Shown here: positions 2,010-2,242 of the stretch, piece by piece
Position numbering within the stretch: the first letter of the stretch is position 1
Layout of the letters: the number at the start of each line of letters is the position of its first letter
Assembly: GCF_006345805.1 (NCBI RefSeq)
Contig: NW_021828509.1
Coordinates: 1 to 8,202 of the forward strand
Direction of reading: 5' to 3'
Source: Octopus sinensis
Lineage: Eukaryota
Length of the DNA: 8,202 nucleotides
Translations under genes and position numbers: made by a program
Notes under the pieces: model-generated
Told to the model about the DNA's origin: nothing
What the model saw: only the letters and a program-made list of their open reading frames with translations
Databases searched by the model: none

Positions 2010-2242
2010 AGCAACAAGGATATCCAGAAGTAATGCAGTACGATCGTTTCATGCAACTCCATTTAGTTGAACAATGCAATCATTACATCAATTCAAATGC
2101 AGAGCAATCCTCAGCTGCACAAAGACATAGAATTTAATTAAATTAAAACAGATGGACGCATGAGTATAATGAAACCTAAAATCTCCAAGAAGTTAAGGAG
2201 ATAGACAAAGCACATGCTGTCTTCACTCCAGCACAGAAGCTA
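2010..2242 (-). mobile_element. Hammerhead-bearing module of about 230 bp in a (TA)n tract (second Penelope-like or retrozyme-like family)
   Basis: The complex island is bounded sharply by (TA)n at about 1993-2009 and about 2241-2290. It contains the hammerhead at 2033-2120 and has no evident similarity to the 140-bp module outside the catalytic core. Confidence 0.5.
2033..2120 (-). ncRNA. Type I hammerhead ribozyme motif with canonical core, long stem II and palindromic stem III
   Basis: The minus strand reads GUGCAG (stem I 5', 2120-2115), CUGAGGA (core, 2114-2108), a 57-nt imperfect hairpin (2107-2051; UGC/GCA, CAUUU/AAAUG, GAA/UUC, UGAUGUAA/UUGCAUUG), GAAA (2050-2047), CGAUCG, UA, then CUGCAU (stem I 3', 2038-2033). 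Stem I is 6 bp with one G-U. Stem III is A-U and C-G closed by a GAUC loop, or the 8-nt palindrome ACGAUCGU in a dimer. Cleavage is predicted after GUA, between 2039 and 2038. One deviation is U.U instead of G-C at the base of stem II. Confidence 0.8.

Follow-up and report, generated by a model that had tools for sequence, protein, structure and literature searches.

A 233-nt stretch within the analysed window, an 8,202-nt piece of Octopus sinensis contig NW_021828509.1, is best read as a terminal-repeat copy from a Hydra-clade Penelope-like element (PLE), truncated and likely inactive. On its minus strand it carries a conserved type I hammerhead, for which a cut after UA is predicted once two copies are joined by their palindromic stem III, and a long stem II that likely serves for binding or docking. 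We put the probability of this reading at about 0.8. Apparently new against the literature searched is a stem II of 55–60 nt with a covarying distal hairpin and a kept AAUAAA or AUUAAA hexamer.

A type I hammerhead with a long stem II arm

The motif runs along the minus strand from position 2120 to position 2033. Its elements are listed below, with the support for each in brackets.

2115–2120, minus strand: stem I 5' strand, GUGCAG (double changes in 3 of 5 stem I pairs)
2108–2114, minus strand: catalytic core C3–A9, CUGAGGA (no changes in six core columns; N7 free, with four changes)
2051–2107, minus strand: stem II domain of 57 nt, bounded by U and U (sequence; 19-sequence alignment)
2073–2089, minus strand: distal hairpin of stem II, consensus UGYAA-nnn-UURCA with a 3-nt variable loop (96% of cells paired; two pairs with double changes)
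2062–2067, minus strand: A-rich hexamer in the stem II 3' strand, ACUAAA here, a putative poly(A)-signal-like element (AATAAA or ATTAAA in 65 of 76 copies)
2047–2050, minus strand: core G12-A13-A14-A15.1, GAAA (no changes in four columns)
2040–2047, minus strand: self-complementary stem III octamer ACGAUCGU, a predicted intermolecular helix (paired in 100% of cells)
2038–2039, minus strand: predicted cleavage site, after U16.1-A17, with A17 at 2039 (register of the motif)
2033–2038, minus strand: stem I 3' strand, CUGCAU (sequence and covariation)

A preliminary description had read this strand as a hammerhead with all conserved core nucleotides and a 6-bp stem I, and it agrees base for base with our reading. 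The core comprises C3 U4 G5 A6 N7 G8 A9, G12 A13 A14, the A15.1-U16.1 pair and H17, as in type I hammerheads, and the topology is also that of type I, with three helices in register, an open-ended stem I and support from covariation. The palindromic stem III (ACGAUCGU at 2047–2040), the (TA)n tracts on both sides of the motif-bearing stretch and the predicted cut at 2039/2038, with which the register agrees, were likewise recovered as described. The stem II length of 57 nt is exact for the window copy, but most copies carry 58 nt.

Stem II opens with U.U at positions 10.1/11.1 and consists of a basal helix with an invariant bulged U (double changes in 5 of 8 pairs), an AT-rich, loosely paired middle, and the distal hairpin. 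The covariation-supported form of this hairpin pairs 2089–2083 with 2079–2073 around a UGA loop, in a register that differs from that of the single-sequence fold. The hexamer is AUUAAA in the family of the window copy (family A) and AAUAAA in most sister families. By eye, no canonical loop 1–loop 2 contact motif was recognised; the invariant bulged U and a CA are candidates for such a contact. The U.U, earlier called atypical, is in fact the commonest state among published Hydra elements (14 of 25 in File S2 of PMC8557442), and among the sister families it alternates with G-C, G-U and A-U. Because both are the norm in published Hydra elements, neither the U.U nor the palindrome is an oddity. 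The suggestion of an undescribed architecture fared better for the long stem II itself, which is real and conserved, and apparently undescribed for the Hydra clade, where the published maximum is ~26 nt. A 55–60-nt arm with a conserved hairpin is undescribed in the open-access literature searched; other published dimeric PLE hammerhead variants, and those of Terminons, may include long arms or core changes. Five 11–13-nt motifs from long-armed ribozymes did not turn up in the text of the PMC8557442 supplement, where a match split by a line break could escape notice.

A strict type I descriptor matched once in 2.0 Mb of dinucleotide-block-shuffled loci, compared with 106 distinct matches in 1.0 Mb of real loci; the real loci had been picked through the element, and the null rate alone is unbiased. 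Because the shuffled loci matched once per 2.0 Mb, a chance occurrence within 8 kb is not expected. Although the motif is real, Rfam cmsearch, which the preliminary description had proposed as a check, returned no hammerhead family at E ≤ 10 for the window or for 1850–2245, and gave only microsatellite-driven miRNA noise; the long stem II insert is the likely cause. The hammerhead descriptors given in PMC8557442 have spacers of 7–17 nt. Rfam and short-spacer descriptors miss thousands of ribozymes in this genome, including those of retrozyme-like arrays with 43- and 76-nt arms, and because long arms are overlooked in this way, animal hammerhead censuses are likely too low.

The host element and its copies

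The motif lies in an insertion flanked by (TA)n, with the following parts.

2009–2245, minus strand: 5'-truncated copy of the family A 3' terminal repeat (pseudo-LTR, pLTR), in (TA)n (homologues, flanks, upstream extensions)
2009–2021, minus strand: U/G-rich box AUYCUUGUUGCUU, 17–30 nt past the cut and beside the common insertion 3' end (conserved columns)
1990–2008, no strand assigned: (TA)n target tract at the element 3' end (sequence; (TA)n-type ends in most copies)
2244–2294, no strand assigned: (TA)n tract on the truncated 5' side (sequence)

A search of the 2.72-Gb genome with positions 2010–2242, as suggested in the preliminary description, revealed a repeat family: for the 233 nt enclosed by the (TA)n tracts there are 2,450 first-look candidates, and all 40 that were scored are 91–100% identical over most of their length. 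These family A copies are variably truncated at the 5' end, often with an inverted terminal fragment, and have two preferred 3' ends, one ~38 nt past the predicted cut (53 of 80 copies) and the other ~85 nt further (27 of 80; ~123 nt past the cut). Arrangement in pLTRs or partial tandems, inverted 5'-truncated copies and an optional tail are features of PLEs; the tail is ~85 nt here, compared with the 30–40 bp given in PMC8557442. The U/G-rich box changes 0.69 times per column, against 1.75 in the flanking spacer and 3.7 in the tail.

Upstream of the family A repeat, an AT-rich UTR with degenerate internal repeats (65–70%) leads to a GIY-YIG endonuclease (EN) and a reverse transcriptase (RT). 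In L223–L226, the EN and the hammerhead occupy one strand and are 3.2–4.7 kb apart, with secondary insertions. RT and the C-terminal GIY-YIG form a single ORF, of which family A holds broken copies and no intact one among the loci examined; the sister families have open frames of 758–787 aa and near-intact ORFs. Pfam detected GIY-YIG at E 0.004, below its cut-off, and matched neither of two RT fragments. In the ORFs of L175, L176 and L177, long Asn-rich low-complexity segments lie between RT and EN, and their length varies among families.

The hammerhead is also found directly 5' of the ORF start, in sense orientation, in ten loci; the distance from cut to ATG is 181–190 nt in nine of them and 167 nt in the tenth, a deleted copy. 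Because the hammerhead adjoins an ORF start downstream, the optional tail is the next unit's 5' UTR. When 13 long loci were searched by regex for ribozyme pairs on the same strand, no pair emerged. A covariance model detected a sense pair in L315, with the ribozymes 3.1 kb apart in a pLTR-ORF-pLTR arrangement, and a heterologous pair in L138; just one complete two-pLTR copy was found in the A lineage. The stretch had been proposed to be the ribozyme-bearing end of a mobile family, and a repeat family with truncated copies, linked to RT and GIY-YIG, bears this out. Between the two kinds of element then considered, the Penelope-like assignment stands, within the Hydra clade, and that to newt- or Schistosoma-type tandem retrozymes does not. 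The window copy itself, single and with neither promoter nor ORF, is likely inert.

Placement in the Hydra clade

Section 11 of PMC8557442 gives as Hydra diagnostics a DKT motif, the CxCX5C type of linker, the absence of CCHH, and CxxC and CxH flanking the conserved E and N. We found ADKT in L066, L232 and L238, and the EN translations contain the CxCX5C linker, lack CCHH and have CxxC and CxH around E and N. The preference for insertion into (TA)n, combined with a canonical-core hammerhead, is also that of Hydra elements. The RWK motif is RWK in sister family L173, RWR in L238, and RWI in family A and its near relatives. The L238/L176 family, at ~4.3 kb, and family A, where the span from EN to ribozyme alone takes up 3.2–4.7 kb with secondary insertions, are larger than the 'generally under 3 kb' stated for Hydra elements, a figure that is descriptive and not diagnostic. 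RWI and a length above 3 kb count against the Hydra reading of family A. By its other motifs, with the published Hydra proteins compared by eye, family A is best placed as a Hydra-clade PLE.

A Neptune reading of the endonuclease was rejected on the linker and CCHH. Neptune and Naiad have a CX2-5CxxC linker with CCHH, and Naiad an N-terminal EN; neither arrangement is seen in this element, in which EN is C-terminal. Separately, a 372-aa RT-EN fragment adjoining a family A copy (L067:3328–4443, minus strand) is of Neptune type; its linker reads CX4CxxC, and its GIY-YIG core contains two cysteines.

Covariation and selection across families

Inside family A (80 distinct copies among 92 matches), the pattern of conservation reflects mostly neutral decay and cannot test selection; comparison across families can. 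Scanning downstream of EN matches (52–80% identity) yielded about ten sister families built in the same way, with inserts of 55–60 nt, some of them young (98% identity, 1,223 candidates). The alignment comprised 19 sequences, namely chosen medoids and variants of 83 matches with 54–61-nt inserts, plus the window; the unrelated L139, L212 and L033 and a deleted copy, L046, were left out.

In these 19 sequences, 91.7% of the cells of the named structure are paired, against 32–51% in slid controls, and double changes affect 11 of the 24 pairs, including the stem III palindrome. There are 65 double-change cells compared with 24 in shuffles (0/500), which leave relatedness in; two of the five measures, the number of pairs with a double change and the number of pair types, were not above the shuffles. 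The covarying parts are stem I, the base of stem II, the distal hairpin and the stem III palindrome (ACGAUCGU/ACAAUUGU). RNAalifold recovers stems I and II and the distal hairpin unaided, and a model-fitted set of 88 matches, which is not independent, agrees with the structure. The stem III octamer is ACAAUUGU in 13 of the 19 sequences and ACGAUCGU in the other six, and older subfamilies keep the palindrome through G.U wobbles (ACGGUCGU).

The ten core columns show no changes on a tree of length 2.66, while N7 shows four and the flanks 2.9–3.7 per column; in 80 family A copies, N7 is G in 62, A in 17 and T in one. An invariant core beside a drifting N7 is the pattern expected under selection for chemistry. 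Conservation of core and stem I, which the preliminary description had asked for among genomic copies, is seen across families in the ten unchanged columns and in the double changes at three of five stem I pairs. Taken across families, the alignment shows the fold and the long arm to be under selection.

Folding, transcripts and a model of cleavage

Folded alone, the 57-mer is no more stable than shuffles (z −1.1; −1.5 for the whole motif). The minimum free energy (MFE) structure of the window motif is not the hammerhead fold, which lies ~6 kcal/mol higher. In all 19 sequences the active fold is 0.4–6 kcal/mol above the monomer MFE, and a rough estimate for the active dimer is above the cofold MFE. 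The predicted energy of the stem III duplex is −10.0 kcal/mol in the window and −6.4 in the sisters.

RNA-seq was available from organism F, probably another species than the host of the window (three runs, with ~6% of each read). At the corresponding position of L003 (1704/1705), the reads listed show no pile-up of begins or ends; coverage of the site comes from both strands and does not fall specifically in sense, and none of these reads ends in a poly(A) tail; they are probably host read-through of old copies. This negative is weak, because the same negative was reported for the PAc hammerhead (PMC11167929). Loose read ends of organism F at L003:1230–1828 represent further long-armed subfamilies whose stem I and stem II base differ in sequence.

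PLE hammerheads have been described as inactive when monomeric and weakly active when dimeric (PMC4209133). The PAc hammerhead, from a Poseidon element, cuts only with protein present; in vitro, insertion does not need its cleavage, and RT initiates at an internal position, which gives a tail (PMC11167929). In the octopus element the ribozyme sits at the unit junction, 3' of one unit's long UTR and 5' of the next ATG. We propose that in transcripts of tandem or pLTR-ORF-pLTR copies two hammerheads would pair through a stem III of 8 bp formed between them; cleavage would be slow, probably aided by the element's own protein, and would trim multimers to unit length. Because insertions end ~38 or ~123 nt beyond the cut, the reverse-transcribed template would be uncut or religated RNA, with internal initiation as in PAc. 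In what is the least certain step, the long arm would most likely present a conserved surface to the element protein, or to stem I, and in this way gate the folding of a misfolding-prone ribozyme. That the active fold is never the predicted minimum fits gating by protein.

Alternative explanations

The stem II insertion may be a tolerated passenger that arose once in an AT-rich UTR and was kept just to close stem II, an account that we consider possible but doubtful. It would fit the range of stem II lengths among unrelated families of the genome (12–77 nt), the enlargement of the whole family A UTR by internal duplication, and the 25-nt arm deletions of L118 and L085. These two are single dead copies and not families, however; across families with 52–80% identical EN the length stays at 55–60 nt, the distal hairpin keeps invariant bases and double changes, and even unpaired or weakly paired positions (the bulged U, CA and AWA) are invariant. 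A different function of the arm, as the carrier of a poly(A) signal, with host 3'-end processing and ribozyme cleavage competing at nearly the same bond of each junction, appears unlikely to us. A hexamer upstream and a U/G-rich box downstream at such spacing make up the canonical layout of a poly(A) site. The hexamer is AATAAA in 44 and ATTAAA in 21 of 76 copies (65 together), 23–26 nt before the cut, and changes 1.0 times per column against 2.0–3.3 in neighbouring stem II segments; ATTAAA is used by two separate lineages, the downstream box is as conserved as the distal hairpin, and the unrelated family with a 50-nt arm also has AATAAA just before its basal helix. On the other side, the reads listed contain no poly(A) loose ends and show no sense-specific drop in depth; the sequence here is rich in A and T, and stem II is equally conserved at other positions; the hexamer is missing from the 45-, 47- and 76-nt arms of other families; and the U/G-rich box, which adjoins the common end of insertions, may instead mark where RT initiates. 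We give equally little credence to the extended version, according to which stem II would place the signal ~25 nt before the cut, with a GU-rich element after it, processing versus dimer-dependent cleavage would decide between polyadenylated mRNA and an uncut or circular template for retrotransposition, and arms of 43–77 nt, having evolved repeatedly in this genome and escaping current descriptors, might explain elements for which only 'half-core' ribozymes are reported.

Other readings concern the activity and the origin of the motif. It could be a structural relic or a protein-binding fold in which cleavage has been lost altogether, as the predicted misfolding, the lack of RNA-seq ends at the cut and the in vitro insertion of PAc without cleavage (PMC11167929) might suggest. 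The invariance of G8, G12, A9, A13, A14 and the UA cleavage dinucleotide in all 19 sequences argues against such a loss, which we regard as quite improbable. Finally, the window copy is short and non-coding, and retrozyme-like arrays with long-armed hammerheads do occur in this genome (600- and 396-nt periods), which would suit a non-autonomous retrozyme monomer, that is, a short tandem-repeat circRNA element, better than the end of an autonomous PLE. The 40 scored family A matches, however, include no short-period tandem array, the points of 5' truncation form a continuum that reaches the ORF, and the hammerhead adjoins the ORF start. Because EN and RT are linked to the family A hammerhead, this origin is contradicted and hardly credible.

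Other hammerheads and repeats

In the same loci, the descriptor also found unrelated hammerheads with 43–77-nt arms and palindromic stem III. Young (98–99%) retrozyme-like tandem arrays with a 600-nt period (L249, G000:C11:27259060-27262240, and other loci; 1,176 candidates) have one type I hammerhead per unit, with a 76-nt stem II and the palindrome ACGUACGU. Tandem arrays with a 396-nt period and 99–100% identical copies (L275, G000:C27:18258659-18261809, and other loci; 796 candidates) have a hammerhead with a 43-nt stem II and the palindrome ACUGCAGU. A dispersed young family (L256, L259, L262) has a 50-nt stem II, with AATAAA just before the basal helix; its 5' fragments are inverted as in PLEs, its ends are of (TA)n type, and 15 loci yielded no ORF within 1.5 kb. 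Additional unrelated hammerheads of type I, with stem II of 26–77 nt and palindromic or near-palindromic stem III, occur in L137, L149, L162, L111, L121, L139, L173 and L188.

The window itself contains the end of a second repeat at 1940–1976 and ~1445–1482 (minus strand), two copies within a local duplication of ~500 nt, each with a minimal hammerhead of core CUGUNGA (A6 to U) and a stem III ACGU without a loop. In eight distinct copies from the fetched loci, U6 is fixed while position 7 is U in three, C in two, A in two and deleted in one, a pattern that suggests a selected core variant. Positions 2295–2490 form another non-microsatellite island, and fragments at 4140–4310 and 5680–5820 resemble what we take to be common octopus SINE-like repeats.

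Comparison with known systems

Why PLEs keep hammerheads is called an open question in PMC8557442. The approximately ten related long-arm families, with young 98%-identical copies among them, provide natural variants in which dimer cleavage, help from the protein and the function of stem II could be studied.

Among known systems, the discontinuous Clec2 hammerheads of mammals are similar in having a long insertion, in lying in a 3' UTR and in being tied to poly(A) signal removal, but their insertion, in a host gene, is hundreds of nucleotides long and is not a compact covarying retroelement arm (PMC6765202). Non-LTR retrozymes share the type I fold, a weak helix III and a proposed pLTR origin (PMC7229834; bioRxiv 10.64898/2026.07.22.740005), and the axolotl retrozyme HHR_Amex2 has the U.U base (PMC7229834). 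They differ in being short tandem non-coding repeats, whereas family A is the end of a coding element. The available portions of PMC7229834 and bioRxiv 10.64898/2026.07.22.740005 mention neither octopus nor cephalopods.

The minimal PLE hammerheads (Cervera and de la Pena 2014, PMC4209133) and PAc (PMC11167929) resemble the octopus motif in their pLTR location, weak or palindromic helix III, tail beyond the cut and requirement for a dimer, which is predicted for the octopus motif. Their helix II, in contrast, has 6–8 bp with G10.1-C11.1, and the PAc ORF starts inside stem II (PMC11167929), compared with ~185 nt downstream of the cut here. A PLE-borne type I hammerhead with ~48–54 nt from CUGANGA to GAAA, marked as deviating in File S2 of PMC8557442, is present in PLE-X1_sMoe and PLE-X1_sTam of Selaginella; these elements are EN-less, Chlamys-related and targeted to 28S rDNA, and the sequence of their arm is unrelated.

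The hammerheads of Hydra-clade PLEs were described by Craig et al. (2021; PMC8557442), who included Hydra-1_Obim from Octopus bimaculoides; the octopus member in File S2 has a 23-nt insert. The 25 Hydra elements of that file have a palindromic stem III throughout, and A17 in 11. The elements described here share with them a type I hammerhead in the 3' pLTR, the CUGANGA-U...U-GAAA base (14 of 25), the palindromic stem III, the predicted cut after A (11 of 25), (TA)n targeting, DKT, the CxCX5C linker, the absence of CCHH, and CxxC/CxH. They differ from the published elements in the Asn-rich linker between RT and EN, in RWI for RWK in family A, in a UTR of 0.6–1.3 kb in the sisters and >3 kb in family A where whole elements are generally under 3 kb, and in a stem II insert of 55–60 nt, compared with 10–26 nt (PMC8557442).
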